This document shows, piece by piece, positions 9,486 to 58,289 of a stretch of DNA of 64,000 nucleotides (within the stretch, counting starts at the first letter, position 1; each line of letters starts with the position of its first letter). The notes beneath the pieces were generated by a model that was given only the letters and a program-made list of their open reading frames with translations, was not told the origin of the DNA and made no database searches. Both the position numbers and the translations under genes were made by a program. Source of the stretch: Candidatus Cloacimonadota bacterium (lineage in GTDB: Bacteria > Cloacimonadota > Cloacimonadia > G963667145); the NCBI GenBank assembly GCA_963676615.1, contig OY781092.1, forward strand, positions 1,496,545 through 1,560,544, given 5' to 3'.

Positions 9486-9486
9486 T

Positions 9487-12116: not shown

Positions 12117-12117
12117 A

Positions 12118-23874: not shown

Positions 23875-24226
23875 GGTGTTACCTTATTTTTGTTCAGACA
23901 AAAAAAGGTAACGAATAAGCCCTCTGATAAGAGAAAAACTCTGCGACTCTTGTAAAGATTGCGGGTCGCCGCCCGCAATGACGAAGGGTTGGTAGTCGCC
24001 TCCTAGCCTCATTTTTCAGAATGCTGTTAGAGATGGATTCCCTCTTTCGATGGAATGAGGGAGAAGTTCAAGAAGCCCAAGGCACGCCTTGGCGTCTTGG
24101 GAAAACACAAGCCCCAAGCCCCCCTCATTCCTGCGCAGGCAGGAATCCAGACACTTCTTGCTTTGCACGGACAAAAAAAAGGGAGCAATCCCTTTCATTT
24201 CTGCTTATGCTTCGACTACGCTCAGC
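23875..24226. repeat. Cluster of REP-like palindromes, including an inverted REP doublet
   Basis: GTTACC...GGTAAC hairpin (23878-23912), GATTGCGGGTCGCCGCCCGCAATGAC (23957-23982), inverted pair GGATTCC...GGAATGAG (24035-24059) and CTCATTCCTGCGCAGGCAGGAATCC (24124-24148), and GCTTCGACTACGCTCAGC (24209-24226). Confidence 0.75.
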
Positions 24227-24844
24227 AAACGCTCGTTTTACCAGAAAGAAAACCACAAAATCTCCCAATTTCCTCAAAAAATCGTCAAATTTTCACAAAA
24301 TTTACAAATTGCAAAAAAATAAAAATTTCCCTAAAAAACCAAAAAATCGTTACTTCTTATTTATAAGAATTTAAGAAAAATCAAAAAATTGGCTAAAAAA
24401 TAAAAAATAGCTGTAACTATCAGAAAAGAAAGGAAATAGCTGTCTTGAAAAAATTTTACTGAAAATCGCAAAATTTGCTTTTTTTCAGTGGTTTTTCTTT
24501 GTCGATTTTGTTTCTTATCTCTTTGTTTTTGTGTTTTTTATGGGTTTTTGTTGTGGACAACTTGTTTTTTTGTGTGCATTTTTGTGTTTTTGGTGAAGCT
24601 ATGTTGTTGTTTTATAATAAAATATAAAATGTGCTTAAAAGAGCAAAAAAAGTTTGACAAAAACTACACGGCATACCAGCTTGGATAGTATCGGGGAAAT
24701 GTGTATGCCCGAATTTTGATAAAAAGGTTGATAGAAAGTTGGTAACTATATTGTTTTTTAAGCAGATAGAAAAAAATAGAAAAAAGATAAGATTGTTAAA
24801 AATGACATCTAACTTATGCGATTTTATAAAGAAGGAGACACTGT

Positions 24845-27800
24845 ATGGGTGCGTATAGTAGGCAGAGAAAAATGAAAAAGATTCTACTAGCTTTATTTTT
24901 GTTTATATCCATTTTTGTGGGTTGTACGATGAATCCAGAAAAGGATATATCTAGTCCGAATGCTTCTGCATCCAGAGGGCTGTATGACGACAAGATTGTT
25001 GTGCAGTGGGAGGGTGTTTCTGGTGTTTCGCAATATGAGGTTTGTCGTTCAGCGGTAAACTCCAACAATTTCTATGACGATTATGACGCCATAGGGACTG
25101 TTACAGGGACTCGCTACGAAGACGCTAGTCCGAACTTAATCCCAGGCAAGCTCTACTATTACAAAGTTCGCTCTATCAGCGGCGACACGAAGTCACTCCC
25201 TCGCAGAACTCCAGCGATTGGACAGCTGAAGGTGCCAGACCTTGAGAATGTGGAGGTTTCCAAAGGGACTTTTGACAATCAAATTGGCGTCACCTGGACT
25301 GTTCCTCGAAAAATCATAAGAGGAGCGTCGGAAGGACTGCTGGGCTATGCGTTGATCAACTATTCTGATAATGAGAAAAATGTGACCACCAACAGTGTTA
25401 GAATTCCGTTTTCCGAGCTAAAAGGAAGCGAAGGACAAAGCTTTGAAGATCAAATAATTCGAGGGAAAGTTTACTATTTCAAGACTCAAATAGTTGTGAT
25501 CGACGGAGAAGAGACAGGCTCGGAAGGAACAGCTATCGATTCTGGCTGGACGACAGTTTCGTCGCCAGCGATGGTGTATGCGACCAAGGGCGAATTCAGC
25601 AACAAAATCCAAATCACATGGGACGAAGTGTTCGGGATACAAGGTTATGAAATTTTGTATAGTGACGATGATGGGGCGAGCTATGAACACCTAGTGGACA
25701 TCTCAACTGTGATGGCAGAGTTTGATGAACAAGAGTATGTCTGGGATGGCCCAATCAAGGGTAAAGAGTATCGCTTTAGAGTTATTTGCGTTGACCGCAA
25801 TGGCGAGGCAACAGGTCCGAACAGCGGAGAAGACACGAAAAATAAAGAGGGTGTTTACAACAACTTGGGTTACACTCAATACGCTCAGCCGATAATCAAC
25901 GAAGTGACCAAAGATTCGGTAGATTATGTCCGAATTAAGGTTACTACGGAAAAACCTGAAGCTGGCGAAAGATTGGTGGTGCAACTTTATCGCAGGGCGC
26001 TTGGTTCTGAGGTTGTCGAAAAATTGCAAGACGCCACGGCGATGGTTACCACAACCGCAGGTAATGGAACGGCGACTCTTGAGGATAATACCTTTACGGG
26101 CAACATTCCAGGAAGAAAATATTACTACTCGGTTACTGTTTACAAAGATGACGGCGGAAAAGTTGTGGGCGAGTCTAAACGCTCGGTTGATCAGGACGGA
26201 TGGTCGGCGATAGAGCCTCCGTTCAATATTAGCGCCACCAGAGGCAAAGATAGCGTTGTGGTTCGCTGGACAAAAGTGCAGTATGCGAAGTCTTATATCG
26301 TGCTTCGTCAAGATTTCAACACGAAAGAGTGGACAGAGCTGCCTCCAATCGAGACAAATCCGAATGTGGACGAGATGAGTTTGGTGGAGGATAAATACGA
26401 CATTGAGTCGGGCGTGAAGTATATCTACAAGGTGCGTTCGAAAAACGATGTTGAGTCTGCCGATTCAAAATTCGATTCTGGCTGGATTAAGATTTTGCCT
26501 CCTACGCAATTTAGGTCTGTGGGCGTTTATCTAAACTATGTTCAACTGGAGTGGGAGCTTGTTAATCACGCAAGGCGCTATATGTTGTATCGCAAAGTGA
26601 AAGACGATCCAGGCGCTTTTGTGGCTATCGATACCGTCTCTGGCGAAACAGGGAGCTATCAAGACACAGGATTGGCTGAGGCGACAGAGTTCCTCTATCA
26701 AATTCAAACAGAGAGCGAGATACCATCTCTTTTGGCTGGTCAAGAGTATGAGATGTCGGACAGAGCTTTGATTGAGTCTAGCGCGAAAACATTGCTGCCG
26801 GCTCCTGTTTTAGACTCCGCTTCTCATAATCTGAAAGACGAGATTGTTCTCTACTGGCGCACGAAACCAGGACAGCTGTATAATGTTTACTACGAAGACG
26901 AAACTGGCGGATGGGTGGATGTTGCCACTGGTATTAGCGACTCCACAGTGACATTGCAACCAGGTATCATCGATTTAACTTTTGGTAGAGTCTATAATTT
27001 TGTGCTGACCACAACCAAAGGCGACGCATGGGGAGAGTCCGACAGAAGCAACAAGGTTGAAAGTTATATGAGGCTTGATTCTGCTTTCAATCTAGAAGCA
27101 GGAAAAGACAACGAGACCAAAATCACCCTTACTTGGGAAGTGATTCCAAATAGTGGCGCAGAGTATTATCAAGTGTATAAAACTACCACTGAAGATTCGC
27201 TGAACTTTACACCTCTTGCGGCTGTAAAAAAAGGCACACAAATAAGATACACATATAACGACGAGAGCAAATCGCTAAACAGCAAATACAAGTATCTCTA
27301 TAAAATTAAATCTTTCCGCTCCGACTACGCAAGGGTTGAGCCAGAAGACCTGCGATTTTCTAATGTTGACACAGGTTGGGTAACAATTCAGCCGCCGTAT
27401 TTCGATCGGGCGAGTTTGGCGATAGATAACGACACCATCAAGATTTACTTTAAGGAAAACAGCAGTGGAACTTACAGGATTTACTATAGGGAATCGAGAG
27501 ACGGCGAAGATTTGTTCTTTAAGCAGATAGAAACCGAAGACGCAACAAATCTGGGCAATAGCAACTACAGCTATACAATCGCCACATACAAAGGAGCTTC
27601 TGTTACAGGAGGCATAGATTGCGATTCGGGGCAAGTTTTGTATTTCGCGATGTCGTCTTATGGATTGGGCAGGGAGTCGAAAAAAACAGAGTTCAAGCCT
27701 GGCTTCACGATAATTCCTACACCAGAGTTTAATCCTGGAGCTACCAAGGGCGAGGCAAACAAAATCGAGGTTAAGTGGAATCCGCTAAAGATAGCAGACA

Positions 27801-48800: not shown

Positions 48801-51800
48801 TCGTAACCGACGGCAGAGCCAAATGGACAGATGCAGCAGCTGAAGAAGGTAAGATTTACTATTATGCGATAGAGGTGCGCAAAACATTCCCTGTAGATGA
48901 AGTTGATTTCACCATATCCACAACGACAGGATTCGATTTGAATAGCGCAAAATATGGCTACATCAAGAGCGAGATAACGGTTGTCGACTTCAACTTCTGC
49001 GCAGGCGGCATAGAGATTTCTTGGCCGAGTTCAGAGGCGAACTTCCCAATCGGGCTAAATCCGAGAAACTACACTTTGTCTCGTAGGGAGAAAGGGGCGT
49101 CTTCTTCTGCTAGTGTAGACATAAGCTCGAAGATTGTCAGAACTCAAATCGGCGCAACACAAGACTCGCTGTGCACGGTGCAAGACACTACGGGGCTTTA
49201 TGGAACACCTTTGACAGATGGCAAAGCGTATGAATATGTCTTAAAATCAGAGATTAAGAGCAAGATAGAAGGCAACTCTATGTATATCAAATCTCCAAAG
49301 ATGACGATGAGCTACTTCTACGATTGGAACAGGGACTCTGTGAGCACCAACAGGAACTATGTCGGCTCGCCAGGAACATACGAAGACAGATTGGAGCTGA
49401 AGTTTAGCAAATTCTTGCCAAGCAGACCTAGCCAAGACTACGACACAATCGGCATCACTCCAGACACAGTTAGCTACTACAAAATCACCAGATATCCGCA
49501 AAGTGGCGATATTGAAGAAGGGAGTGAGGCGAATATTACCGTTAGCCAACTGGGCGAAGAAGAGGATGTTGAGACGGGAGAAGTGGTTTATGTCTTCAGC
49601 GACGACGCTACAAGCAGTGTGTTTGGAAATCCTGTGTCAGGAGAGTCTTATAGCTACGCAGTGCAAGCGGTTTTGGACTACACCAAAGGCACAGAGTTTG
49701 AGTCTGCAATCCTCAACAATGCTGACTCTTCGGCATCGTATATAAAGATAGCGGCGATGACTTTGATTAAAGCAGAAGAGTATAAAGAAAACGACAGAAT
49801 AGAAGGTGCGAAGATTGTTTGGGAGGCTACGACAGGAGCAGACGCATATGTGATAAGCCGTGACACTTCAAGCAGCTTTAACTCTCCAGAAGTAGCTACT
49901 GTCAGTGGTGGTGCTCTTCTTCAGGGCGACACGATGTTTATCGACTACAACTTGCCAAAAGTAAATAACACAGGAAACAATAGTCCTCTTGGCAAATTGA
50001 AGATGGGCTACACCTATTACTATAGTGTCCAAAAGCAAATGGGAGATCCAGCTGCTCCAGTTACTAGTGACCGAAGTAACTATAAGAGTTACACACACGG
50101 CATTAAAAATGGCGAGTATATCGTCTCGAACTGGGTAGATTTCAACGACTTGGCAGAGCAATATAACGACGGCGAAATTACGGGAAGCATCACCGTGAAG
50201 CTGCTGAACGACCTTACATTTAGTAGTAACACAGATAGCTTGTTGCCGCTGGGTAACCAGGCTTATCCGTTCCAAGGCACCTTCGATGGGCAAGGACACA
50301 CGATAAACATAGAGGCTATCGAAGACAATCACGCTAATGTTGGTGTGTTCGGCAAGATCAAGGACGCTTCGGTAAGTAATCTTATCGTAAATTATAATGT
50401 TGGCATCGCTGGGGCTGCAGATTACGCAGGTGGTTTGGTTGGACAAATAGAGGGCATCTCCAAAATCAACAATGTGAAGATGAATATAGCTGCAGACTTC
50501 ACAGCCGATATAGCTGTGGGCGGAATGATTGGTGGCGGCGACGGAGCGATTAACGCTAGCGGCGACACAGTGTCGATCAACGGAACGATGAGCGCTGGGG
50601 TTTATGCAGGCGGTTTTGCGGGTAAAGTTGTCGGAACGACCGAAATCGATAGCTGTCAGGTTACCGCTAATAGCGTTTCGGTAACTGGTGGAAGTGAAAG
50701 TTTCGTGGCAGTGGGCGGAATGTTCGGTCAGTTCCATGGCAGAATTGAGAACTCTGCAGTTGAAGTTGCAACCCAGATAGCAGCTGGAGTTAATTCAAAA
50801 AAATGCTACGCTGGTGGATTAGTTGGTTACGAAGAGCAAACAGGAAGCGTTTACAAAACTTCGACTGTCGGCGTTATCTCTAGCGGCGTGTCTGCAGGAA
50901 ATGCGTCATCGACAAGAGCGGCAGCTGGCTATTTTATCGGTTATTCGAGAGCGGCTCTCATCGACGAGATCAACATAACGGCAGTTCTGCCGGTAGCGGC
51001 TGTTGCCAGCGGAGAGGCTTGTGCAGGTGGCTTGGTCGGTAAATTCGAGAATATCGCTGGCTCGATAGATGCAGTTTCGCTAACTTTGGCTGGTGATATT
51101 TCGGCGAACTCCGCTAGCGGAGACGCTTATGCTGGTATGGTCGTCGGTAAAGCCGAAAAAATCTCGCAAAACAGCATCGGCAAAGATGGAGTGACGAGCG
51201 TGTTTAGTGGTGGCAGTAAAAACCTAAAAGCTACAGCGAATAATGGAAACGCCTATTTGGGTGGAGTTGTCGGAAGCATCTCGGCGACCTCGTTCAAAGG
51301 GCTGAAAGTGGAAGATGTGAACTTCCTCACAGAGGGAGCGCAAAAAGCTTATGTGGGCGGTATCGCTGGTAAAGAAGAGCAAGCAGGAAGCGCCTATGAC
51401 AGCGTTGTGGTTGCGGTGACGGTTACATTTGGCGAAAGCTTAAATAACGCCGACACTTTGGTTGTGGGAGCTTTGGCTGGTTCGAGCAAAATGGCGAGCC
51501 TGGCAAGAACGCACATATTGGCGAATATCGAGCTGAATACTGGCTTCTCTGGCAAGAGCGTTATTGCGGGCGGATTGTGTGGCGAGATAGACAACATCGC
51601 GTTTGCTATCCCGAACACCGACTTGACTCTTAACTCGTTTGCGATAAAAGCTGGAGCGAAATCGAAGATTGGCGCTATCGCTGGCAAGGCAAATGTCAGC
51701 AACTTCCTCACAGACGAAAACACACTTGCGGACATTAACTTTACGGAGATGGAAGTTGGAGAAGGCTCGTATGTCGGCGGACTGTATGGCGACTTGTCGC

Positions 51801-54800
51801 TTGTTGGCGGAGCAACGCCGTTTGACTACAAAGCGCCAGTAGAGATAACTCTCACAGCCAATGGTTACAACTCACAAAGAAGCTATGTGGGTGGTTTGAT
51901 CGGTAGATTTGAATCGACACTGTCCAAAAGCTTGGCAGACACCAGCAATGCAGGCGTGAACTTGACGCTCTCTGGCGACGGAATAACTGCGGGCGGTTTG
52001 GTCGGTCTTAGCCAAGATGCTACCCTAACTGGCTGCAGAGTAAAAGCGGCATTAAGCGGCAGCGAAGACGATGTAACCCTCGGCGGAATTATCGGAGAGA
52101 TGAGCGGCAATAGCTACCTTAGAAAATCTTCTGCAAGAGAGGGGGTAACCTTGGTTGATGCACAAAAAGCGGGAAGTTTGGTCGGTAAGATGAATGTGTC
52201 AACTTTGGCTGGCATCAAAAATAGCTTCAGCTACAATATTGCGGCAAACAACATCGACACCCTCGGACTTTTGGTTGGAGAGATGACCAGCGGAAAGATA
52301 GAAGCTTCGTATTCTCTAAATTGCAAGGCTGTAAACGCAACTGTTGTCGGAGACTTTGTCGGTGTGATGAATGGCGGCACGATTGCCAACTCCTATGCCG
52401 CAAAAGCAAATCAAGAAAATGTCTGTGGGAAGTATGTCGCAGGCGATACAGCAGGCGCAGTGACTGCCGAGAACCAAATCTTCTTGTCTGATATTATCTT
52501 GAGCAAAGCGGAGTGGGCGCTGGATAGCACTTTCTCTTATCCTTATTTGGTAGAGAACAAATATGAAGTGAGCACTTTGTATAACGATTTAAAGATGAAT
52601 AAAAATGCACAGAATCAGTATGAGATAACCAAACCTATTCAACTGGACGCTATTGGAGATGTGCGTTTGAAGGGCGGAGATTATACAAAACTCGGCGACT
52701 TGTCCGAAGGGCTTCGCTTAAACAACAACTATATCATCAAGAATAATCTAGACTTTAGTGGATATACAGGTTACACTCCAGTGGGCTATGACGCTACCAA
52801 TCCATTTGTAGGAGATCTAGACGGTAACTTCAAAAATGTGAGAAACATCGAGATAACTGGCACTCAAAATACAGGTATCTTTGGCTACTCTACTGGAAAT
52901 GTGAGCAAGCTGAGAGTTGTAGGCGCTACAGTTGATGCTGTCGACAAATCTGCTGTGGTTTGCGGAGAGATGGCAGGTGGAAGCTTCGACAGAATCGAAC
53001 TAGATAGCTCCACAATCAATATTAACACAGGCTCTGGTGCAGGAGTAGTTGGACTTATCTCTGGCGGCACATTGAGCAATGTTCTGACACGCTTTAACAA
53101 AATCGAGGCGTTGAGCAATGTGGGCGTGATAAGTGGTAAGATGACTGGCGGAAGAGTGCTAAAGGCTGTAAGCGTCGTGGACAGTGCCGGCTCTAGCGTG
53201 GGCAACGCAGGTGGCGTCGCAAGTCAAGCCAGCGGAAACGCCACGATTGACAGCTGCTTTATGGTAACCAAGGTGTTGTCGGGCAAAGAGGTATATAAAG
53301 TTGCAGAAAAAGGCTCCAGCACGACTTTCCGCGGAAACTACTCTGTGGCAGAGACAAAAATGGTGGAAAACGGCAACGACAGATGGTATATGGGGATAGA
53401 CCCGACCAGCGATCAAGGCGGCAATGTGTTCTTTAGCATGTTTAAAGAGTTCTTCGATAGCGATAGCCATGGGTTTAATGCGCCAGACTGGCAATGCGAC
53501 GATTATGCTCGCGTATATCCATTTTTGCTAGATTTTGAAGGCGCTGAAATGCAGCAATTGCCTGTGGATGCGCTAGAAAGCCCCGCAAAAATCGAAAATC
53601 GAGTTATGACGATTAACTCCTTAGAGGGTCTTGCGTTTATCGAAGGTTCTTTGTCTGAAGTGGACACAATAAAATTGGCGGCGAACCTTGAGTTTACCGA
53701 AGACGACGACTTTAGCTTGGGTGAAGGCAACTTTGATCCGATTACAAAATTTGAGGGTATCGAGTTTAATGGACAAGGGCATTACATCAAGGGAATGAAA
53801 ATCAACGCCAATAAAGTAAATATGGGCTTTGTGCAAGTTATGGAAAACAGCACGATCAAAAACTTGGGACTTATCGAATGCGAAGTAATCGGCGGAAGCA
53901 GCACACAATCTCTAGGCGGATTGGCAGGAAAGACAGGACTGGGAACAAACACGATTGTCGATGTGTATGTCGGTTCGGGCAGATTTGTGGCAACTAATGC
54001 GCAAAATGTTGGTGCTCTTTTGGGTCAACTTGGCGCCGGTGGAGATGTCTCGTGGATTATCGCTCTGAACAACACCGTAAAAGCAAAAACAAACGCAGGT
54101 GGATTGATAGGTTATGCTACAGAAGGCAGCGTGAGCAACAGCGTAGTAGCCGCAGACACCCTCTCTGCCACAAATACAAGCAGAGTGGTTAACAGTGCTG
54201 GTGCGACTTTGAGCGACAACTACGGATGGAACGGCAACGAGAAAGGCAATGATCCTGGATTGGCAAACGAAAATGGGGCAACCTTTACATTCTCTGAGCT
54301 TCTGAGGAAAGAGTTCTACAGCAGTAAGTTAGACTTCATCGGCAGAACCGCTTGGAGCTGGGACGACGCAGATATACAAAATTGGCGCTGTATGCCGAAC
54401 TTGAGCCAGATGACTGCTGCAGATTGTGAGCCAGCAGTGGTAAGGTTTACCAAAGGCACCCAAGGGACGGAGTCTATCCCTTATGGAATAGAGAGCTTGA
54501 ACCAGCTAGAGCTTTTGCAAGCGTTCCCGAAAGGTCTGTTCTTTGAACTGAAAGAGAATTTGAACTTCCAAACAGCAGACTACGATGTGGACGACGACGA
54601 AGACAACGGCAACTGGCTGCCGATAACCCAGTTCGAGAGTAATGGTGACTGTTTTGACGGACATCTAGACGGTAACGGCTACTCTATCAAAGGGATGAAG
54701 GTTCACGACCAAAACAATCCTGTTGCTGGTACCTACGGTGTTGGTCTGTTCGGTCAATGTGATCCAGGAGTAGATATCCAGAACTTAAGTCTCTACGATT

Positions 54801-57800
54801 TCGAAGTCAGCGCGAAATATTCATCCTATGCTCGCTGTGCGGCACTTGTGGGGAAAATCTCAACGCTCAGCAGCTCAGAAAAATCTGTCTTCAAAAACAT
54901 TTTGGTAAAAAACAGCACGATAAGATCGACTGGCTCTGCTGCGGCAATTGTTTGCTATGTAGCCACAAATATTGAAATAGACGCAAGCTTGTTGTTCGCC
55001 ATCCAAAACAGCGTATCTTCGAGTAGCGGTAATAGAGCTTCGGGAATAGCGTTCACAGTCAATATAAGTAGCACAAAACCCTATAGCATCTCTAGCAGTA
55101 TCGCGATTAACGACTCTGTCGCTTCGCAATCGGGTGTAGCAAAAAGAATATCTGCTAACCAATATGTCACTTTCTCGAATAACTATGCGTTCCGCAGAAC
55201 ATATGTAGATGGCACTCAGCTACCGACCGAAGGCACTTCTACCGACCAAAACGGCAAGCCGACCTCGCTGCTGGCACTCAATAAGAGCTTCTATCCTACC
55301 AAATTGGGCATAACTTACGATGAGAACTTCAGATGGCCAGATGTCGCAGACCAAAAGAAGGTGTATCACCCAGTGGGCAAAAATGTGCCAAACACGATAG
55401 ACTCGGGATACTTGAACTTAGCGAACTTTGAAATTGATAGCGATCCAAACACATTTAGCGATGGAACAGGAATTAGCGGAGACCCGTATATCGTGAGAAC
55501 GGAGACCGACCTGAACAATATGCGCTATGGTGTGGAGATGGATTATCAGCTCGGCAATAACATCGAAATTACTTCTACCCTCACAGAGCCGATTGGAACG
55601 GCAGCTTTACCGTTCCAAGGCAATTTCGATGGAAATGGCTACGCTATCGATGGATTTAGTTATGATGTTCAAGAAAACGGCGTGTCTGGGCTATTTGGTG
55701 TCATAAAATCAGAAGTGGGTAGCAGCATCAGAAACTTGGCTCTTACGAACTTCACGATGAGCGCTAGTGGTAAAAATAACATCGGTATATTGGCGGGTGT
55801 AGATAGCACAGAGGAGGCAGTAGCGAACACCTACAGCAACATTTTGATTTACAACGGCAAAGTAACAGGCGCCACCAGTGGAGTCGGTGGACTTTTTGGC
55901 GACGCTCCAAGTGCGATTATCGAAAATGTGATTGTCGCTGGTGAAGGTTACTACAGCTCTAACTATGCTGGCGGCATCGTGGGTAAAGACGCAAAAAGCA
56001 TAAAGAATTCGGTCGTTATTGTTGATACGATCAGAGCTACCGCAAGCAACGCTGGCAGGATTACAGGGGAGAAATTAAATATTTGCGAAAATGTTTACAG
56101 CTGGTATTTCACAGAAGCGTGGGAAGGCGGCACGCTGTATGACCCAAGAAATCCAAATACAGGCATATACGGGGACAACGCCTTTGTCACAGACTTTGTC
56201 GATACAACTTGGTGGGAAGATCTCGGCTTCAAGTTTAGCGGAGACAACAGTATGTGGAAGCTGGAGCATATCGACGACCAACAAGTGGTGCCGGCGCTCA
56301 AACATATGACAGACGACACCCTCACTGTGCCGGGACTGAAGCTGGGCATCATTGCAGCTGGGCAAAAGGTCATTACGAAGCCTTCACACTTAAACATATT
56401 GCATGTAGGAATATCTGATTCATTTTTATATTACCCCAATGAATCTATTGATTTAAGAGACTGGGAGGATGATTGGCGATTAGATTTAAATGGGGACGAT
56501 GCAGGTAACTGGAATCCTATTGCTACTTTTAAGGGGAACATAAATTCATATGGGTGCGGCATTATTGGTTTGGATGTGCAAAAAACAGTAGAAGGGAAAC
56601 AAGGATTTATCGCAAAGCTTGAAGGCAATGTGGGTAAAATAGGGATTTACAAATCCACCTTTACAACGACCGAACCTAATGTAACACAAGGCGCGATAGC
56701 CGCAGTTGTCAATTATACAGACGATTTCATAAGAAACTTGTGGTCTGTGGGCAACACCTTTAGCGGTGGAACTACCGTAGGTGGCGTTATAGGCGAAGCG
56801 GAAAATACAAGAACGGGATCTGCCGATAGATTGAGATGGCTATCTGCCAAAAACACAATCAAAGACGGCACCACAATCGGTGGCGTGGTTGGGAAAACTA
56901 ATACAAATCTTTACGGATTGGCGTGTATGGGCAACACCATAGAACCTACAAGCACACCAACTATCAACGCTATCCGAGGAGAAGGTTCAACAAATGTGTC
57001 TCTCTCAGACGCTGGCTTCACCACCATCGGAGGGGCAACTCTGCCAGAAGGAGGTCTAGATACGGACCCAAATGGCCAGGTTTTCCCTGTAGATGATCTT
57101 GATCAAACTGTGTGGCAAGATTTCTTTGATATGTCAAACGCCTCTTCTTTTACAAACCAAGTGGCAGACGGCCGCCACTATCCTACCCTGAAGAATGTCT
57201 CACTGGAGATAGACAACGGCAAGCTCGAATACTTCTCTGGCGGATCAGGAGCCCAAGGCGATCCATACCTAATCGCTACTCCAGCCGACCTGAAAGCTAT
57301 CGGCAAGGAGCAGTTTGTGAGAAAAAGCTATTATTTCGAGCAGACACAAGACATCGATATGAGCGGCGAGGAAGACTTCTGGCCAATCGGGCTTTCTACT
57401 ACAACTAATCCTGACAATCCTGGTAATTTGAGCGTTGGATTTGTGGGGAGCTACAACGGCAATATGTATCAGATCTACGGATTGCACAACTGCGTGGATT
57501 CAAAAAGTGGTCTGGCAAATATAGGTCTATTTGCTAAGGGAGGTGGGAGCTTTAAAATTGAAAATATAGTTTTGGACTCGGCAACATTTGTGGGAACCAG
57601 CTCTAATGTCGGCACAATTATGGGCTATGCTCTCCCTGCAACTATAAAGAACTGCCGCGTAACTAAATCTAGTGTTACCGGCACGAACAATGTTGGCGGG
57701 GTTGTTGGCTTGGGAGAAGGAACGAATGGTAGACTAGAACAATGTTTGGTTATCGGCACGACGATCAATTTGAACGCTAACGGCAACACAAACGCTGCTG

Positions 57801-57973
57801 GCGGGCTTATCGGAAGTGCAACCGTAGGAACGATTGAAAAAAATGTGGTGATAGATTGCACTATCAAAGCGAAAACAGGCACAACCAACTGCGACAAAAT
57901 CGCAGGGGTTGTTGGGGCTGCCACTCTCTCCGAGAACTATTTTAATTCGACAGAGCTCGAGATTACGCCATAA
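24845..57973 (+). CDS. Giant (11,042 aa) lipoprotein: about 80 fibronectin type III-like repeats plus C-terminal GLUG-motif modules
   Basis: Single 33.1-kb open frame with an AAGGAG RBS and a lipoprotein signal ending FVG-C27 (alternative start ATG 24872). Recurrent FN3 pattern P..V.ASKG...D.I.(V/L)TW...Y.IYR...D......G..Y.Y.V.A...S....GW to about aa 8400, then GGLVG/GLUG repeats with F.G.FDG.G..I motifs. Confidence 0.92.
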   Translation: MGAYSRQRKMKKILLALFLFISIFVGCTMNPEKDISSPNASASRGLYDDKIVVQWEGVSGVSQYEVCRSAVNSNNFYDDYDAIGTVTGTRYEDASPNLIPGKLYYYKVRSISGDTKSLPRRTPAIGQLKVPDLENVEVSKGTFDNQIGVTWTVPRKIIRGASEGLLGYALINYSDNEKNVTTNSVRIPFSELKGSEGQSFEDQIIRGKVYYFKTQIVVIDGEETGSEGTAIDSGWTTVSSPAMVYATKGEFSNKIQITWDEVFGIQGYEILYSDDDGASYEHLVDISTVMAEFDEQEYVWDGPIKGKEYRFRVICVDRNGEATGPNSGEDTKNKEGVYNNLGYTQYAQPIINEVTKDSVDYVRIKVTTEKPEAGERLVVQLYRRALGSEVVEKLQDATAMVTTTAGNGTATLEDNTFTGNIPGRKYYYSVTVYKDDGGKVVGESKRSVDQDGWSAIEPPFNISATRGKDSVVVRWTKVQYAKSYIVLRQDFNTKEWTELPPIETNPNVDEMSLVEDKYDIESGVKYIYKVRSKNDVESADSKFDSGWIKILPPTQFRSVGVYLNYVQLEWELVNHARRYMLYRKVKDDPGAFVAIDTVSGETGSYQDTGLAEATEFLYQIQTESEIPSLLAGQEYEMSDRALIESSAKTLLPAPVLDSASHNLKDEIVLYWRTKPGQLYNVYYEDETGGWVDVATGISDSTVTLQPGIIDLTFGRVYNFVLTTTKGDAWGESDRSNKVESYMRLDSAFNLEAGKDNETKITLTWEVIPNSGAEYYQVYKTTTEDSLNFTPLAAVKKGTQIRYTYNDESKSLNSKYKYLYKIKSFRSDYARVEPEDLRFSNVDTGWVTIQPPYFDRASLAIDNDTIKIYFKENSSGTYRIYYRESRDGEDLFFKQIETEDATNLGNSNYSYTIATYKGASVTGGIDCDSGQVLYFAMSSYGLGRESKKTEFKPGFTIIPTPEFNPGATKGEANKIEVKWNPLKIADNTIRYQVFRINTQNDEELYTVENNNGIFLDQGEDLREGFKYTYRVRAINTTAEIAVQTAYPEESLESTQSNFSDTTTGYSKLMPVLDLRATGPEGTAINEKVDVTWDPKGDRVSYVIARSLQSPIKWDTIFSGSSATGEFEDLTAEGNKIYYYKVAVSTEDYPKIVAVCDSVVGYVRPLPPANVEASKAKYADKIEVTWKKPLLVTAYQICRYNELGDSTIMSRDTAEVITRNDSVFFGDSQVEKGYSYTYKVKAISGDMGETDYSDISDDYKRKKATGYTKMPTVENIVATKGEYEDSIVITWDDIPVANNYLVQRSRVGATSSSDTIQKSTTNNRWVALKGEGLVDGQKYEYRVAAQKGTNLSHNWQADFDEGWLMLAGPTNVKASKGLPDSIIVTWDTLRTVTDVQEYQVWKKAKANAGEQDQELASGLSPQTKSWVFHASEDEKGASIGFYIKAVSAEFGTSANSEVAKGYTELEPVTEFKASPCAPDSVLGNSIILTWSTSKTSDSTIIEKMVGNQWQLLKTFDATVLDYKDLGLTEGREYRYRAQAKKRHEDGNELYSDYVYADATISIPLISFDTITKSKYLSDVELTWKGLQSGKELRFEIFVFQNEADYSTNSNVYDTLKVEENSKSYYRFKHNTVSASPGKFMSGTKYYYKIRTQTTPGGIWSELTQPEDGKPSYGWAKTPAPSMSLVSKDSIAAIYLEWNPNSAAKKFEIERYFKYPDKEAVKTYLVNENSFKDVQNLFTGHEYGYKLRAINENCENDTSAWTVELVGMARLLPPIGVTASDGTLEDTILVTWDTPKNASNPSYGATIYKVYRSQIKDPEKMSLLGDTILTNWDSNSSKTITFVDELTTKELGKMYYYGLKSQVGAEVSEMSIIDSGWAKIPAPIFTKITARDGGFKLEDDSIRVQWQDPSVLSLGSITYEIEYRIGEATAVSMSGIAEGSTEKALYIAPDERFNKIYVRIRSDRETFGKSMWSQWVETYTNMPKPVIRDVIVSLTTVGRSVRVNYICPNDWVDSVYFYREKAGEPDAAYLVKVIPNAGANVPAEFYDEKGLTMYQKYAYRVKFYKGLTGFSEASDTICVTTPVLPPDNLDATEGEYEDMVLLTWDGVSGNTVEKLSYNVYVDSTLTGSFPNWKNNNAKTAKRISLPGSPAQIPEFEVQYGVKYPTNIGVSGGEWFSLERGRNYAFAVSTNPNFNNFDEVNVSDVSEIAIGYARISTPEMISASKGEYSDKIVIKWKASNAYKHNELVDYQIYRTNLTTGVVDSSLVMKASDLNISNDTVTIEQEAQVYDLSPKVKYSYTVKALMGVDGNRTVAHASLMSPVPYSGWLAMPAPEEFRASDGISTDSIYLQWSNDDKFITQLYASYDLATLWSNQISTTQDSHYTVQILKKEDQGRYRHFGAKFYDPAFGSSKPSSTCQDSGFALFDGVQITSVSKGEYLDTIKIVWPETPNAAYYDVQYLEKGTSNWSTEINVPVQEYKIKSFNGTNRGKAFYVRVRATNDIVRFLADEGYGPTDSGFTQLDTVFGFSATKGEIPDTIALAWSEITNATSYKIYRSTAIDGEFIQKNATSDLKYEDHELSLNYGEVYFYKVLAVNELTETLPEAYQNYSRVDSGWIDIPQPQNVTATKGTYKNRIKLTWDVLQRVEGYIVDTAQENDVDEYGVLDTIRPASQGELNAYVDELPGGKFKRGVRYFFKVRAFYENVASSLIYANQDNGYIPLNIPTNVKASKGTSDSTIFVSFLASDGLLGIDNYVIQRRSKLSGDTTEVSLSSNTFGYSTNEDTIKIEDRNSLQPSKGYVYDYRVRSRIGSITSDWSAWSDYGWLNLRPLEIRVANEEDSLMTDSIKVAWDTEASQFKAVNRLDIYYDTVALSADGDWKDKLVVDDMDELDKGYIMITTQNNANFLPATMYCFRAKSCRFEDAIEISSAFSALDSGWYKLRAPKITYASIGESADTITIRWERQADLPHGSAAEMEYVISRGSTKEFKRLVNVDFYNDTLEIEPGVSHIYTVTAVHPRYLSSVASAPKRGYAKLLPPILTEVKADNQASQMKIEWVYPLEDLDEIDSFYLYRKTAYDDPENTPVYSTNAVAGTETYTWVDDDCTLGQEYFYYLRAFKAGMIISDTSNVMSDVLKLIVPSITSASRGEYTNKIDIAWTGTKDAKEYVIYRSQTPSFDVIDTVDTVAALPTSYLDDNNGVGLADGEIYYYKVASKRDKNISEKSGYYGGYTKLITPEITELSQNTEKIKLKWSKEGGNANSSGEVFVGEDLEVLSPEDSTTLQQDSTTDLISAFASGALWFVKGKEYYAKVRASITKTNIVMISGGSQESFEIVSDFSGTKKFFSKLENPVLTVHSGKLDTLLIEWNRMDGDVVSNIDVEWTEKDNPAPDTLRTTFINDGTDSTGRIKVAYTGADKLLPAVVYNFRIKFKRGLVTSDWSETEEGWTKLPAPENLVVSKGDYEDSLRFRWENYRGNTDTLQDSTYKYQIQFYDGSNFVNLEGGAITDKADFYDVTLSMKNILTRGVMTQFRIKGDVDPASSVLAQSNNLSQDSGFTRLMTPISSGTLSKGLEGKIEIEWETNLVDNATIQAYKNLGVEYQIERRKSGDEFMDYILASVDSLTKITYDDKAGLDPRDIYYYRMRFFSQVYYDRYSDVKKATSPWVVIDDSGSVKMNPPKLKVNEEGEFFTDKVELKIERALGSDSAYLYRDLNNDKNFEIIDTIKYGSSVAQGGYLFYKDEKDIESGNCYTYYAVALSGSRKSSDGQKLQTFTRLEAPENVRASEGEFDNKIVVKWDTVSRAEGYKIRFYEVLTDKLVDSAEVNNQDSVKILKAVLLKNIKVGQVYRFSVAAWNNISVYQGKKIYSESNSAEGFLKFTLPEYVTLSQDSVGFIKLQIGYPEPGFDLFIYRSANKATKAGELEKWSDYTKISVNLTYNDAEKEYVCRDILSTTGGVEGVQYAYMVQAYKSGMLNAISDTFKTYIENETGEKTGWSKAGVYRGAITATQGIYQDSIVVVWDDSEDKEFVDSVQYEWVEYNRETGKAQDSSITADTTVTRRSQSLLPESKVKNGYKYQYKLRKKFYDADDNLYTTSEISTINAVGWATMEKPTIRLTKNAAGDLVVEQQKNNNKFQVYKSVNGAESVLAATIEQGGQYVDSVVYDKHNIGKAVEYKIKTINTYTGLESAFSDAVDTFYMIYSPKYAAASQGEFTDRVEVEWQWGSARPALVDSFVVTRYDLANGDTKRFAFAGVDGARLEYRGSLPMGTDTCLFADKDVKQGVSYQYSIKSMRVNPGIDTRISPDSATATGYAKFAAPTNLSATENQKEVLITWDSIRNQGTVENFVIFYNTTEEGTYSQLQSLGTNVAPEDTFFTDTEIPQGTVRWYKVAAFNEISQEGAFAGPVRGYALMEPISGVKCWRGESTDTIKVTWSTLPVYESYYVEWSLSKETNADGRFTNRLDKRGSFTNSNYKADSVIIPIVPDSLRGRKIYVQLWAQNEYGGSEPVLDSGYARLRPPANFSVSKGTELDSIEFTYAKRIGSNAESYNIYASTNKQESQQPTAAAIKIEGYNGIDTTIEVDPNTEGYYYYASVQAVSDLENASSDFAVDSGYSQIPVVSDFGIEALSSGDIELSWIPVDIGAETDSVKYNVYRSRNNGTFYLIADNYYSEPAQGKIRFVDNTCEPGDLFEYYVVSEASQRPTEFRVISDTSEHKKTSAQIGFVSGFEQDTSYFSSALVNLKWKQRGDIDSYYIYRSSFADTAKATEIKVEIANGNFYYSDASSAVSDSSGMLWHYWIRARKNGNFGNWTPVDDQQGLLAYTRPAKTSIVEASQGVSSDTIRVVWNKVDFVSNYVLQYRVENSTEWSDIESIADTFYTLMRNRENLQDGVRYDFRVYSVIEKDAQSPKGSDNGYYGREMTSEPSDIEKGFVKFEKIKNFIFQSADDSIKSDTIQLTWEKLAATEIVYTLYRNTIENEAGAQEIGKVKDVGSYLDIRNPGGTVPEGGKEYYYWITAGKNTLAGSTSDKQAVSVMNGASPVEGSYAWCLLEEAENVWASGKMKATGGDNDASVTYSDSIVIKWDSVPNATTYALQEKRNEGNWTNITGAGNVADTQFVWSRTTDAQKGIIYQFRVAAQNNLCGTNNPVYSEPVNGFAKLSTPREVEAYQKENENGIFLRWQPIDNAQKYVVYQTEDLAKGFNKLLEVLDDGTDTKIDTVDLEPLPGTRRWYVVRAFNSATGGSDTSEIVDTVCPILPPENLNATKGESESEVVLTWKLNDRTAGVSGFYVYRTKPGMAGGAAFSQVDSIGVVTNFTQTAGVATFRDKLGDEVKNGADTTRSGVKYLYAVKTFKNDEISEFTPTAEQDTGWIALPQISGLSVPVVKADDNFVLKWNKGKDVKKDINYVYKRIRYKAGNLDTVYQYEENYSVISDTTATDAQGLENGMGYQYFVKAFNSEYVDESNPEIWESSDNRGLVSEEWSEGVFTGRKFAKPVMQVERNKDSLKVDSIYIAWELNKNATNFIFEIDTVATFNSPSKDERTQDDPNGDFESFYYTLQGGLLKTQVYYFRMKMENQEFNNDIWDSLTSVWSEPDSGWSKLVPPLNVAASDDLVDSILVTWDKWNWKDSVEYQVDYISGIGMPGFEKTYGSSLQYRSPYTEGANIITVTAKHAKFGNSAPSEAVQGVGKLPSPEFTPGKEPTKGDYLDSIYFEMDETSGGLSEVDIRYRIFVSQDSTSDEISSASPDAGNYIESTSEKIALKLDDGFYANQYGKKLYIRIAWAIGTDSELFSQKSKLDSGWTKLKAPTALSVRELGAPDDTTSIGIRWNPSVNADSTVIYRRRYESGDDFAPIDTIDSETTEFIDYLPMDDRTKTYEYKVQAVNSLPNTQSALSKGVASYVPSIYELENFVATKGKKVDTISFSWSGNLDSIYTIQVFDENPENNSTPEPVVVLNGLKESDANNWDVTEDNCQSGRWYYFKLYLNGDENKPESLRFYVVDSGYAGMGEIDRAWVEVTNDTSEIDLNIMGSNVGDSAFSRFDVTNAMAYDWISKAYLSRQNNQTGVYTRIDTLDAENLIYTDRFTTGFGKIYDYRLEFINQIEPGRTVDYKTFTTLRKPSNVAWQASTLAKDEIEVRVTNPTGVNGTIDSIVLYRSAPSNAGEIDTLIYAYTAGLNTNALVDTKILQRGLFYFYTAAFYSKTTGLSRVSDQEARAYAKLTSPQFISVSDGINKDTIFLKWNKIENAVNGYTLYRDTSEAGDWATREVVATLDNNTDTTFDDETDYEQCKKIYYRVVANGYDTTSVFDECETGIGSRAFRGVTDFAGVGIPKVDTMSFTFSLPQGVALDGTTSYPYFKKGVKLMRYTKFDSINSISNDFAVKEDSISVVQSGNTYTVTDKSKPKLKELYYYRVILRVSGSSGETDLSNYALGYLKPPVVENVTATAGTKVDTVLIKWDKLPKESVIEDTVTSYILVRNDKNGVEIDRVTLGGSDSTFKDYNGNSFAEPFEPGKDYTYYVLANVEFTRGGTAYSINSEKSEVADGWAEMQPLSAEEIEVTKGNIDDIDKEFAPQVGTDTTLTIKLTAIKAYQKYIIVYRKVDDSSNNFQRIDSIAGENIVDFTDTIVKAGQILRYRFRIGNDHLSSNYADTLAYTNLRPVTKLEKVSTTKDYVQIKVFAASSTKNAKVDSVMLLRSDETGVVLDTAIHEGFTGDFALIKDSAGNQGQKYTYQAALFNNSTGYSPFGTSDVSLGKDISAPTILNVYEGAREDTIKITWSMVDGAVKGYRVYRDSTGGTGLNDGDYDSLYQTPASPAFEFATDTFYSDKTEYPAGKKIYYKIVAIGKDKMSARSAAGFGYLKYGGIKDLKAFEWPKKGKIDTMSLSWSISNNITYDSIFMARLSEVNYVDSVDTLNKHLIPQSQMKKNIGEGEYEKIGDYDLYTYNSTSDDLLIGQLYFYRAKVRVSGSWSDFSNVAIGYLEMPKVNNVRATRGVGDSIVVTWDSVPHAKEDSVDYYTVYRYTSDGSAPGEARVSGNTKRFVDYTGDESPFNQTEKGREYNYAVIAFMQIDQDTLAGATTSNFEKSLKGPESDKYMGYSIPDSAYFVEISKGTTEDSIVITYHSPAYVDEVSLYRKGSEETSWSADAYASLDIGMAVEEGVAVDKNIEYGKKYDYKILVKKGDNSVWSKVDSGWSRLRRPDSVKILVNGRYSNEIKLQIFTSNQDINVDSIIVYKEAVSSGQIDTTVWAKPSIVQGSYVLGDTVDIQQGLFYQYSVAFKNEIGTSLTRKEKTGKAFAKLDIPEWNSISRNEYVDKIELNWSMNKDAYRGYRVWVDTVSGTNGTNPENYEIRYENSQTNDCSQDTTFSDDRVYVPGKMIYYKIQAMGYDTVSEMSDFDFGTCKYEGVKNLSFDGPKVDSLRFTWSVPTTIANPSFVFYKFDSVETVDSLNDKYKADIMPYGANGSYYFVETPAQEDLLIGNLYFYRCIVTVSGVESNPSNVAFGYLDMPEVEGLSATKGGVYAEGNTLTPYKDSIVLTWSRMNHVVNDSVSYYQITRFAGDKETGLSMQLDNGKDTSFVDKVGAMKFGEKTERGQLYRYVIQAYYDISEDTSSAATAPPFETKLVSPAIDTVLGYTYPDSVNLVSASKGTYEDTIRVSYTSGKHADSIVMQRKGSNGIWTRIGTLDEMESRTNPRTFVDKSVALRAGENYDYKATVYVQGLKRESNIVSGYTRLGSPKNLEFVRTSQYSYVAGKEDTSGINIRWNKEPDGDGYIVYFDTVNPVRLAEADSVTITSDADTTYFWTPSEFKNSQDSILQYYIVAKTYMNDASGGKQYSELSNVAEGAVVSKSVRGLSAAYNPAVGVEQIQVQWDSLPKGYETSEVQRYDVYQAMNSKVNSAFSLVTSQNSRVAKKVGVDTSLTPAGNVFYYKVMVRYNNAKDSSVYSAMSEPVYPPLGDLGLEVSKDSAQMFVYFNEIANVNEYRIYKAVDTLPELRNPVATLTDISGIVTDGRAKWTDAAAEEGKIYYYAIEVRKTFPVDEVDFTISTTTGFDLNSAKYGYIKSEITVVDFNFCAGGIEISWPSSEANFPIGLNPRNYTLSRREKGASSSASVDISSKIVRTQIGATQDSLCTVQDTTGLYGTPLTDGKAYEYVLKSEIKSKIEGNSMYIKSPKMTMSYFYDWNRDSVSTNRNYVGSPGTYEDRLELKFSKFLPSRPSQDYDTIGITPDTVSYYKITRYPQSGDIEEGSEANITVSQLGEEEDVETGEVVYVFSDDATSSVFGNPVSGESYSYAVQAVLDYTKGTEFESAILNNADSSASYIKIAAMTLIKAEEYKENDRIEGAKIVWEATTGADAYVISRDTSSSFNSPEVATVSGGALLQGDTMFIDYNLPKVNNTGNNSPLGKLKMGYTYYYSVQKQMGDPAAPVTSDRSNYKSYTHGIKNGEYIVSNWVDFNDLAEQYNDGEITGSITVKLLNDLTFSSNTDSLLPLGNQAYPFQGTFDGQGHTINIEAIEDNHANVGVFGKIKDASVSNLIVNYNVGIAGAADYAGGLVGQIEGISKINNVKMNIAADFTADIAVGGMIGGGDGAINASGDTVSINGTMSAGVYAGGFAGKVVGTTEIDSCQVTANSVSVTGGSESFVAVGGMFGQFHGRIENSAVEVATQIAAGVNSKKCYAGGLVGYEEQTGSVYKTSTVGVISSGVSAGNASSTRAAAGYFIGYSRAALIDEINITAVLPVAAVASGEACAGGLVGKFENIAGSIDAVSLTLAGDISANSASGDAYAGMVVGKAEKISQNSIGKDGVTSVFSGGSKNLKATANNGNAYLGGVVGSISATSFKGLKVEDVNFLTEGAQKAYVGGIAGKEEQAGSAYDSVVVAVTVTFGESLNNADTLVVGALAGSSKMASLARTHILANIELNTGFSGKSVIAGGLCGEIDNIAFAIPNTDLTLNSFAIKAGAKSKIGAIAGKANVSNFLTDENTLADINFTEMEVGEGSYVGGLYGDLSLVGGATPFDYKAPVEITLTANGYNSQRSYVGGLIGRFESTLSKSLADTSNAGVNLTLSGDGITAGGLVGLSQDATLTGCRVKAALSGSEDDVTLGGIIGEMSGNSYLRKSSAREGVTLVDAQKAGSLVGKMNVSTLAGIKNSFSYNIAANNIDTLGLLVGEMTSGKIEASYSLNCKAVNATVVGDFVGVMNGGTIANSYAAKANQENVCGKYVAGDTAGAVTAENQIFLSDIILSKAEWALDSTFSYPYLVENKYEVSTLYNDLKMNKNAQNQYEITKPIQLDAIGDVRLKGGDYTKLGDLSEGLRLNNNYIIKNNLDFSGYTGYTPVGYDATNPFVGDLDGNFKNVRNIEITGTQNTGIFGYSTGNVSKLRVVGATVDAVDKSAVVCGEMAGGSFDRIELDSSTININTGSGAGVVGLISGGTLSNVLTRFNKIEALSNVGVISGKMTGGRVLKAVSVVDSAGSSVGNAGGVASQASGNATIDSCFMVTKVLSGKEVYKVAEKGSSTTFRGNYSVAETKMVENGNDRWYMGIDPTSDQGGNVFFSMFKEFFDSDSHGFNAPDWQCDDYARVYPFLLDFEGAEMQQLPVDALESPAKIENRVMTINSLEGLAFIEGSLSEVDTIKLAANLEFTEDDDFSLGEGNFDPITKFEGIEFNGQGHYIKGMKINANKVNMGFVQVMENSTIKNLGLIECEVIGGSSTQSLGGLAGKTGLGTNTIVDVYVGSGRFVATNAQNVGALLGQLGAGGDVSWIIALNNTVKAKTNAGGLIGYATEGSVSNSVVAADTLSATNTSRVVNSAGATLSDNYGWNGNEKGNDPGLANENGATFTFSELLRKEFYSSKLDFIGRTAWSWDDADIQNWRCMPNLSQMTAADCEPAVVRFTKGTQGTESIPYGIESLNQLELLQAFPKGLFFELKENLNFQTADYDVDDDEDNGNWLPITQFESNGDCFDGHLDGNGYSIKGMKVHDQNNPVAGTYGVGLFGQCDPGVDIQNLSLYDFEVSAKYSSYARCAALVGKISTLSSSEKSVFKNILVKNSTIRSTGSAAAIVCYVATNIEIDASLLFAIQNSVSSSSGNRASGIAFTVNISSTKPYSISSSIAINDSVASQSGVAKRISANQYVTFSNNYAFRRTYVDGTQLPTEGTSTDQNGKPTSLLALNKSFYPTKLGITYDENFRWPDVADQKKVYHPVGKNVPNTIDSGYLNLANFEIDSDPNTFSDGTGISGDPYIVRTETDLNNMRYGVEMDYQLGNNIEITSTLTEPIGTAALPFQGNFDGNGYAIDGFSYDVQENGVSGLFGVIKSEVGSSIRNLALTNFTMSASGKNNIGILAGVDSTEEAVANTYSNILIYNGKVTGATSGVGGLFGDAPSAIIENVIVAGEGYYSSNYAGGIVGKDAKSIKNSVVIVDTIRATASNAGRITGEKLNICENVYSWYFTEAWEGGTLYDPRNPNTGIYGDNAFVTDFVDTTWWEDLGFKFSGDNSMWKLEHIDDQQVVPALKHMTDDTLTVPGLKLGIIAAGQKVITKPSHLNILHVGISDSFLYYPNESIDLRDWEDDWRLDLNGDDAGNWNPIATFKGNINSYGCGIIGLDVQKTVEGKQGFIAKLEGNVGKIGIYKSTFTTTEPNVTQGAIAAVVNYTDDFIRNLWSVGNTFSGGTTVGGVIGEAENTRTGSADRLRWLSAKNTIKDGTTIGGVVGKTNTNLYGLACMGNTIEPTSTPTINAIRGEGSTNVSLSDAGFTTIGGATLPEGGLDTDPNGQVFPVDDLDQTVWQDFFDMSNASSFTNQVADGRHYPTLKNVSLEIDNGKLEYFSGGSGAQGDPYLIATPADLKAIGKEQFVRKSYYFEQTQDIDMSGEEDFWPIGLSTTTNPDNPGNLSVGFVGSYNGNMYQIYGLHNCVDSKSGLANIGLFAKGGGSFKIENIVLDSATFVGTSSNVGTIMGYALPATIKNCRVTKSSVTGTNNVGGVVGLGEGTNGRLEQCLVIGTTINLNANGNTNAAGGLIGSATVGTIEKNVVIDCTIKAKTGTTNCDKIAGVVGAATLSENYFNSTELEITP
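43142..47980 (+). repeat. Three tandem copies of a ~538-aa five-FN3 super-repeat inside the giant gene
   Basis: Equivalent Leu codons at 43142, 44759, 46373 and 47981 (periods 1617, 1614 and 1608 bp). Shared motifs KKIYY.(V/I).A.G.D, (K/P)K(V/I)D(T/S)(M/L), LY(F/Y)YR...VSG....SN.A.GYL..P.V and V..Y...R. Confidence 0.8.
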
Positions 57974-57994
57974 AAATTTCTAGGCTAAGTAAGC

Positions 57995-58025
57995 AGGGAG
58001 CAGCGAAAGTTGCTCCCTTTTTTTT
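57995..58025 (+). terminator. Rho-independent terminator after the giant gene
   Basis: AGGGAGCAGC-GAAA-GTTGCTCCCT followed by T7. Confidence 0.9.
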
Positions 58026-58289
58026 GTGCAAAAATTGTGCAAAAGTCGTTTATTTTTGTGTTTTTGCCAAACCTAACTGTCTATTTTTGAGTAAAAAAAG
58101 ATTTGTGGGCAATTTTTGGGAAAATTTGTTGACAAAGTTCGTTGCCTTCATCACTTTACTGCAGATAGGGTTATATTGGGATGTTTGTAGATATGTTTAG
58201 CGCTCTATTTTATAACTGTTTGATTTTGAGTAATTTGCCTGCATCCAGCAGGCAGCAATATAAAATTTTTTTGAAGTTTAGGAGACACT

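Follow-up and report, generated by a model that had tools for sequence, protein, structure and literature searches.

The window analysed here, a stretch of 64,000 nucleotides from a Candidatus Cloacimonadota genome (GCA_963676615.1, contig OY781092.1), contains a 33-kb gene, here called gene A, followed by the start of a paralogue, gene B; a second paralogue, gene C, lies elsewhere in the same genome. Coordinates are those of the 64-kb window, and where positions outside it are given, G000 denotes the source genome and C1 its single contig (1.57 Mb, 44.5% GC, 97.6% completeness). We consider it probable that the product of gene A is a 1.2-MDa lipid-anchored surface adhesion fibre with a stalk of fibronectin type III (FN3) domains and a beta-helix head, for which an export route of the lipopolysaccharide-transport (Lpt) type is the likeliest.

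Gene A and the architecture of its product

Gene A is an uninterrupted open reading frame (ORF) at 24845..57973 on the forward strand, encoding 11,042 amino acids (aa) from an ATG start with zero internal stop codons, and its GC content equals the genome average. A ribosome-binding site read from the sequence, AGGAGA (24833..24838, +), lies 7 nt upstream of the start in a context, AGGAGACACTGT, that is common to gene A and paralogue B. Past the stop codon (57971..57973, +), a strong intrinsic terminator consisting of a 10-bp stem (6 G-C pairs) and a T run occupies 57995..58025 (+), beginning 22 nt beyond the stop.

The N-terminus of the protein, MGAYSRQRKMKKILLALFLFISIFVGC followed by T, is composed of a basic n-region, a hydrophobic h-region and the lipobox FVGC, and has the sequence features of a bacterial lipoprotein handled by Sec and signal peptidase II. 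The type II signal peptide comprises residues 1-26, with Cys27 (lipobox F-V-G-C) as the predicted site of lipidation (24845..24925, +). Alignment of 5 sequences, the gene A protein and four orthologues, shows no variation at F24, V25, G26, C27 and T28. The signal peptide is also the sole hydrophobic segment of transmembrane strength in the protein, the mature form of which has a mass of 1.214 MDa and an isoelectric point of 4.74.

The stalk, residues 34-8396 (24944..50032, +), is made up of about 79 diverged FN3 domains that recur about every 100-105 aa. A profile derived iteratively from the repeats of the protein itself detects 74 of these domains; five gaps of about 120-160 aa, each offering room for one further repeat, bring the total to about 79. 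The same profile finds 69-73 repeats in each of the six proteins of the genus, the five orthologues having 69-72. Pfam fn3 (PF00041) matches the gene A protein as a tandem array with 138.6 and 53.9 bits against a cut-off of 25, and fn3-type families are the only ones that exceed their cut-off. Mean pairwise identity among the stalk repeats is 19%, and there is no super-repeat at lags 1 to 15, over which identity between repeats is independent of lag. A search for relatives among proteins of 1,226-3,500 aa returned 4 generic FN3-array proteins of 20-26% identity.

The C-terminal region (residues 8400-11042, about 2,640 aa) ends in ...ELEITP and, by windowed phmmer self-comparison, comprises seven related modules, one beta-helix of about 790 aa and six of about 250-330 aa; blastp of the region against itself returned the self match alone. 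The first module is an elongated beta-helix with GGLVG-type, GLUG-like turns (residues about 8419-9208; 50102..52474, +). The six modules that follow are of the GLUG / Peptidase_M26_N type and occupy residues 9255-9584, 9585-9889, 9890-10194, 10195-10520, 10521-10789 and 10790-11042 (52607..57970, +). Pfam Glug (PF07581) scores 16.7, 16.8 and 13.2 bits in 3 of the 7 segments, below its cut-off of 20.5, and Pfam and NCBIfam find nothing else in this region beyond noise.

Using phmmer, module 10195-10520 was searched against 1.84 billion representative proteins, yielding 6,530 relatives at E<=1e-3 and 894 at E<=1e-10, the best of which reach E 1e-35 to 1e-120. Among the best 150 matches, the module typically occurs in 2-17 copies per protein of about 550-7,500 aa. 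Glug exceeds its cut-off in 5 of 7 relatives scanned, and Peptidase_M26_N is likewise found in 5 of the 7. The same module was modelled with AlphaFold2 from 34 aligned rows of orthologous and paralogous modules; the model is a right-handed beta-helix that carries a small capping subdomain (predicted local distance difference test score, pLDDT, 91.8; predicted template modelling score, pTM, 0.91). Its sole strong match in the PDB is 3n6z (E 1.8e-8, template modelling score (TM) 0.64/0.62), Bacteroides ovatus BACOVA_03286, deposited as a putative immunoglobulin A1 (IgA1) protease; next in rank come N-domains of IgA1 proteases from streptococci and Gemella. Residues 8400-9260 are modelled as a single all-beta helix of about 790 residues (pLDDT 84.7, pTM 0.84), the best PDB match of which is again 3n6z (E 8.6e-3), while a profile of these residues gives 0 matches against PDB sequences.

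These results largely bear out the initial annotation, which had read from the letters one 33-kb ORF with a type II signal peptide, roughly 80 diverged FN3 repeats of about 105 aa, a size of about 1.2 MDa and about 2,600 aa of GLUG modules. The last of these claims is right in substance, as seen from the 3n6z fold and the Glug-bearing relatives, with Pfam Glug itself staying below threshold. The segment-wise AlphaFold modelling that it proposed gave confident beta-helix models for both segments, 10195-10520 and 8400-9260.

The same folds raise the alternative that the C-terminal beta-helices are enzymes, either polysaccharide lyase- or hydrolase-like or protease-associated, in which case the protein would be a tethered degradative array and not an adhesin. 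Lower-ranked fold matches do include pectate, alginate and fucoidan lyases as well as phage tailspikes, distant FN3-array relatives carry peptidase domains, and Peptidase_M26_N accompanies IgA1 proteases. The enzyme matches are weak, however (E at least 0.02, TM at most 0.25). A motif scan of the gene A protein finds no HExxH, and Pfam finds neither Peptidase_M26_C nor any other catalytic domain. Moreover, the invariant and near-invariant residues among the 34 aligned module sequences are Gly, Pro and Tyr only, all of them structural. We regard an enzymatic head as unlikely and favour the adhesion fibre, in which the fast-evolving distal modules would bind a ligand.

Some large proteins with the same type of GLUG module (P0017, P0025, P0048 and P0053) have prepilin-like N-termini (e.g. 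...FTLIELLA...); different lineages appear to hang this type of module on different anchors.

Conservation, paralogues and neighbourhood

Misassembly or the decay of a pseudogene was considered as an alternative origin of the ORF. Tandem Repeats Finder reports zero tandem repeats in gene A, and no direct DNA repeat exceeds 51 nt, the longest being 69-71% identical; because the gene lacks long DNA repeats, collapse or expansion of repeats during assembly is implausible. The gene A sequence is present in three public runs from two studies, with no RNA run among them; one run may be the source of the assembly. In a run of the second study, contigs of 8,015, 8,952 and 13,036 nt are identical to the window in the parts compared and, together with short linking pieces, cover 44001-64000; this run also contains 0.99 of sampled words from 24001-34000.

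Orthologues of 11,057-11,099 aa with the same lipobox occur in 5 of 5 other species of the genus, each represented by a single-contig genome of 1.5-1.6 Mb. The six proteins of the genus (11,042-11,099 aa) are collinear, with 46-54% identity to the gene A protein, 70-71% identity in the two closest pairs and no indel block of more than 26 columns in the six-protein alignment. Evolution is fastest in the last ~1,000 residues, which are 34-42% identical among orthologues vs about 50-60% in the stalk. Because flanking housekeeping genes are 73-90% identical across the genus (RibBA 85-90%, RibH 86-88%, EamA 73-84%) as against 46-54% for gene A, the latter evolves fast yet keeps its frame and length. 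Along the whole length of the gene, the proportion of nonsynonymous differences (pN) is 0.17-0.19 vs 0.64-0.68 for synonymous ones (pS) in the two closest pairs; since synonymous sites are saturated (synonymous divergence, dS, 1.4-1.7 in the closest pairs and undefined for G000 pairs), these values are used only to state that pN lies far below pS.

What speaks for an artefact or a pseudogene is that the genome is metagenome-derived, that paralogue B has a frame shift at the contig junction and that B is split in one relative. Such an origin would have to be reconciled with the lack of long DNA repeats, with contigs from a second study and with about 33 kb kept open in six species despite saturated synonymous sites, and we give it a negligible probability. 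The assembly artefact that the initial annotation had allowed for as an explanation is excluded by the absence of long repeats, the second-study contigs and the five collinear orthologues. Taken together, these comparisons indicate that gene A encodes a real, conserved and selected protein.

Paralogue B begins 317 nt downstream of gene A (58290..64000, +), carries the lipobox LLGC and the same FN3 stalk, and continues over the contig end into G000:C1:2-16519. In all it amounts to about 10.7 thousand aa, in frames of 5,179 and 5,506 aa that are off by one at the contig junction; this offset in G000 is either a circularisation error or a real frameshift. B is intact in one relative (10,918 aa) and split into 4,256 + 6,695 aa in another. 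Paralogue C is a 9,946-aa frame on the reverse strand (G000:C1:1400269-1430106, -) with the lipobox VAGC, 69 FN3 matches and a GLUG-like C-terminus. Gene A and the intact B of the relative are collinear over their whole length, with 31-47% identity per 300-aa window, and A and C are mostly collinear with 25-37% identity. Judging from these alignments, the three genes go back to ancient duplications of the whole gene, and their lengths have stayed about equal. Together they span 95.0 kb, or 6.05% of the 1.57-Mb genome.

The relationship among the stalk repeats is position-specific. The same stalk positions are 31-54% alike between paralogues and orthologues, vs 19% among repeats within a protein, and the repeats have not been homogenised. 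Position i of A is much closer to position i of B, C and the orthologues than to any other position of A; the array of about 80 domains predates the duplications and has remained unshuffled, with its count unchanged. That each of the ~80 stalk positions keeps its identity across paralogues might reflect in-register side-by-side packing or position-specific partners. A complex prediction of A 29-335 with B 30-340 gave a score of 0.00 and, having been run without controls, counts neither for nor against in-register pairing.

Large lipoproteins are not confined to A, B and C in this genome, in which 7 of the 9 stop-to-stop frames of at least 1,500 aa carry or belong to proteins with a lipobox. 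A candidate giant lipoprotein of 5,033 aa from its first start codon, with the lipobox FFGC and 4 FN3 matches of this type, is encoded at G000:C1:793666-808767 (-).

The order EamA transporter, A, B is kept across the genus, with riboflavin genes upstream, except in G004, where B lies elsewhere. The flanks of the six genus loci contain no conserved transporter or accessory gene beside the giants, nor did we find there any genes of a type I secretion system (T1SS; ATP-binding cassette transporter, membrane fusion protein and TolC) or other export genes, in keeping with the earlier statement that no T1SS genes adjoin gene A. The suggestion that gene A is a candidate for an undescribed surface-appendage system fares less well, since the locus is not a multi-gene system: the fibre protein is the product of one gene, which has two paralogues of whole length but no accessory genes that are conserved.

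Several other features of the neighbourhood were recorded. A transposase of the IS256 / Mutator family lies between the EamA gene and gene A (22600-23850, -) and has no counterpart at this place in five related genomes. Proteins of 760-813 aa, 28-36% identical to one another, adjoin the giant genes in three relatives (e.g. L023:3793-6126, -); one of them was scanned and gave zero Pfam matches, the 813-aa copy matches gene A weakly (25-29%), and none was found at the G000 locus. Further upstream, two N6/N4 DNA methylases, a DpnII-like endonuclease and a GmrSD-type restriction enzyme are encoded in a low-GC segment (8253-13107, about 28% GC), probably a defence island that was acquired.

Export machinery and the proposed route to the surface

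Giant bacterial adhesins are normally tied to a T1SS, a type V (T5SS) or type IX secretion system (T9SS) or to sortase. In agreement with the initial annotation, which had listed no RTX repeats, autotransporter barrel, LPxTG, SLH or T9SS-type tail, a motif scan of the gene A protein finds neither RTX nonapeptides nor LPxTG, and Pfam scans give zero matches to autotransporter, SLH and Por_Secre_tail families, the last of these even at E<=10 in the final 253 aa. No C-terminal barrel and no two-partner secretion (TPS) domain is among the Pfam results.

Secretion by a T1SS, T5SS, T9SS or type II secretion system (T2SS) encoded elsewhere in the genome was also considered. Two TolC-like OEP proteins are encoded, and searches of the genome for Por_Secre_tail and for SLAM (PF04575) gave no match and were run without a positive control, which leaves this alternative some footing. 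Set against it are the Sec / signal peptidase II signal with its invariant lipobox, which speaks against a T1SS, the lack of RTX repeats, barrel or Por_Secre_tail in the protein, and beta-helix repeats that extend to within about 8 residues of the C-terminus. In addition, the search for SprA_N, a domain of the T9SS translocon, was negative in all 6 genomes of this genus and positive in 25 of 25 genomes from 14 other genera of the class, and no secretin was found in G000 by searches in which six controls were positive. We therefore judge secretion by any of these systems to be highly improbable, and return to the lipid-anchored surface fibre.

The genome encodes Lgt (PF01790, 245 bits; 14257-15033 of the window), LspA (Peptidase_A8, 117.8 bits), LolA and two Omp85 proteins, including BamA. 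LpxC is also encoded, which marks the organism as a diderm that makes lipopolysaccharide (LPS). An 821-aa ORF is an LptD of the Bacteroidota type, matched by PF19838 (LptD_2) with 140.6-142 bits, a model that among the controls matches Bacteroides thetaiotaomicron alone; the other LptD model, PF04453, has no match in the genome and misses B. thetaiotaomicron too.

The presence of this LptD bears on recent work in Bacteroidota, a sister phylum of Cloacimonadota within the same superphylum of Fibrobacterota, Chlorobiota and Bacteroidota (FCB). It was not until October 2026 that the export of surface lipoproteins was assigned to the LPS translocon (bioRxiv 10.64898/2026.10.03.756453; PMC13692018). 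According to the first of these reports, surface lipoproteins of Bacteroidota are exported by LptD together with extra subunits, of which LptT occurs in six and LptP in seven further FCB phyla (Liu et al., bioRxiv 10.64898/2026.10.03.756453). The second, as far as its accessible text goes, reached the same pathway via LptZ (Jana et al., PMC13692018). The 821-aa LptD described above (G000:C1:169501-171966; L112:949-3414) begins MRKVFASFLIVLGC, with a possible lipobox; the LptD of F. johnsoniae is reported as a lipoprotein in the accessible part of bioRxiv 10.64898/2026.10.03.756453. The LPS translocon is the best current candidate for the outer-membrane step. The unknown export route of the initial annotation holds insofar as there are no linked export genes and no T1SS, T5SS, sortase or T9SS features; it no longer holds insofar as a Bacteroidota-type LptD is encoded and provides a candidate.

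Several observations weigh against a fibre exported in this manner. The Bacteroidota export signal for surface lipoproteins is given in the accessible text of PMC5080379 as C-X-K-(D/E)2, SDDDD or SDDFE after Cys+1, and the residues that follow the lipidated cysteine in A (C-T-M-N-P-E-K-D), B (C-N-D-M) and C (C-T-D-V) fit none of these; in the export-signal region past Cys27, only E at +5 is invariant in the A sequences aligned. A regex survey of 64 candidate lipoproteins, which is crude, revealed no clear signal class and acidic residues that rise weakly with protein size. The search for the Lpt route in the genome covered LptD, of a translocon that also has LptN, LptP and LptT as extra subunits, and the published substrates of the LPS translocon are small next to 1.2 MDa, the gene A cargo being far larger than any tested. 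The T9SS result depends on the single marker SprA_N, GldM_1st being silent even in SprA-positive relatives. To these come the sub-threshold Glug scores given above and the fact that we infer expression, lipidation and surface exposure of the gene A protein from sequence.

The lack of a canonical export signal after Cys27 feeds directly into another alternative, namely that the gene A lipoprotein stays in the envelope, periplasm-facing or anchored in the inner membrane, and serves as a scaffold. With LolA encoded, the protein could by default be sorted to the inner leaflet of the outer membrane, and no surface-export machinery has been demonstrated in this phylum. Yet a stalk of ~0.3 µm with seven beta-helix modules would far exceed the periplasm, the solved relatives of the GLUG / M26_N modules are extracellular proteins, and the distal end evolves fastest, as expected of an exposed binding tip. 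A scaffold within the envelope seems to us quite unlikely on this balance, and a fibre on the cell surface remains the reading that we prefer.

A probable lipid-anchored fibre among known giant proteins

We propose that the gene A protein is exported by Sec, after which Lgt would lipidate Cys27 and LspA would remove the signal peptide. Held in the outer membrane by its N-terminal lipid, the polypeptide would lie outside the cell, the outer membrane most likely being crossed by the LPS-translocon route known from Bacteroidota. The about 79 FN3 domains would form a thin stalk, roughly 0.3 µm when extended (at about 3.5 nm per domain plus the helices), and the distal head, in which one long GLUG-type beta-helix module is followed by six short ones, would bind a ligand on partner cells or particles. 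A, B and C together would probably make up a fibrillar adhesive coat of this genome-reduced genus. A more far-reaching version, which we hold to be rather unlikely, is that the three lipoproteins of ~10-11 thousand residues form a coat of defined thickness (about 0.3 µm) for attachment to a syntrophic partner or host and are threaded by an Lpt-type translocon, in which case they would be the largest lipoproteins known.

Cloacimonadota are common in anaerobic digesters, and the 6% of the genome that is given over to A, B and C points to cell-cell attachment as a major investment of a reduced lineage. A 1.2-MDa adhesin-like fibre on a plain lipid anchor would broaden the picture of giant-adhesin secretion. 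Whether surface-lipoprotein cargo crosses the outer membrane folded or unfolded is debated, and because 79 FN3 domains and beta-helices could hardly cross folded, the gene A family would be a natural stress test of the LPS-translocon pathway; giants threaded by an Lpt-type translocon, if the proposal is true, would represent an extreme natural test of its cargo handling. The stalk, for its part, shows with unusual clarity how a repeat protein can be under position-specific constraint, without gain or loss of domains.

Our searches of the literature on Cloacimonadota giants and fibronectin type III, and on giant genes and lipoproteins, found no description of the gene A family. Very long genes from metagenomes have been described in Omnitrophota and other uncultured bacteria, where, according to the accessible texts, their products are proposed mediators of cell contact (bioRxiv 10.1101/2023.11.21.568195; PMC11573180). 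In these texts the terms 'Cloacimon' and 'lipoprotein' have 0 occurrences each, and the supplementary tables may list such proteins. Gene A resembles the Omnitrophota giants in being a very long gene from a metagenome-derived genome. In contrast to them, as far as their accessible descriptions go, it shows neither N-terminal peptidase domains nor linked type II or type IV secretion genes.

In its C-terminal modules, the gene A protein shares the fold of the GLUG / Peptidase_M26_N domain, as seen in 3n6z and in the streptococcal IgA1 protease N-domains 6xja and 7uvk. Unlike the IgA1-specific metalloprotease (M26), it has neither the M26 catalytic domain nor an HExxH zinc site, and its modules stand seven in tandem, with the first stretched to about 790 aa.

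With the Bacteroidota surface lipoproteins of the expanded LPS translocon, the gene A protein has in common an FCB diderm host with LPS, a Bacteroidota-type LptD, an N-terminal lipobox and domains of extracellular type. It differs from them in being 10- to 100-fold larger than typical substrates, in lacking the canonical signal and in belonging to another phylum.

Its closest counterparts in design are the giant repeat adhesins, of which MpIBP of Marinomonas, LapA of Pseudomonas and SiiE of Salmonella use a T1SS and SprB of Flavobacterium uses the T9SS. Like these, the gene A protein reaches megadalton size and has tens of Ig- or FN3-like extender domains, and it would have its N-terminus at the outer membrane and its binding modules at the distal C-terminal end. 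In contrast, its anchor would be an N-terminal lipid instead of a T1SS retention plug, a T9SS C-terminal domain or a sortase motif; the RTX repeats of T1SS adhesins are absent, and SprA was not found in the genus. On its predicted features, the protein fails every tested defining feature of the known secretion classes of giant adhesins, and we would class it as a giant repeat adhesin held by a lipid anchor, present in triplicate and with a fixed domain count.

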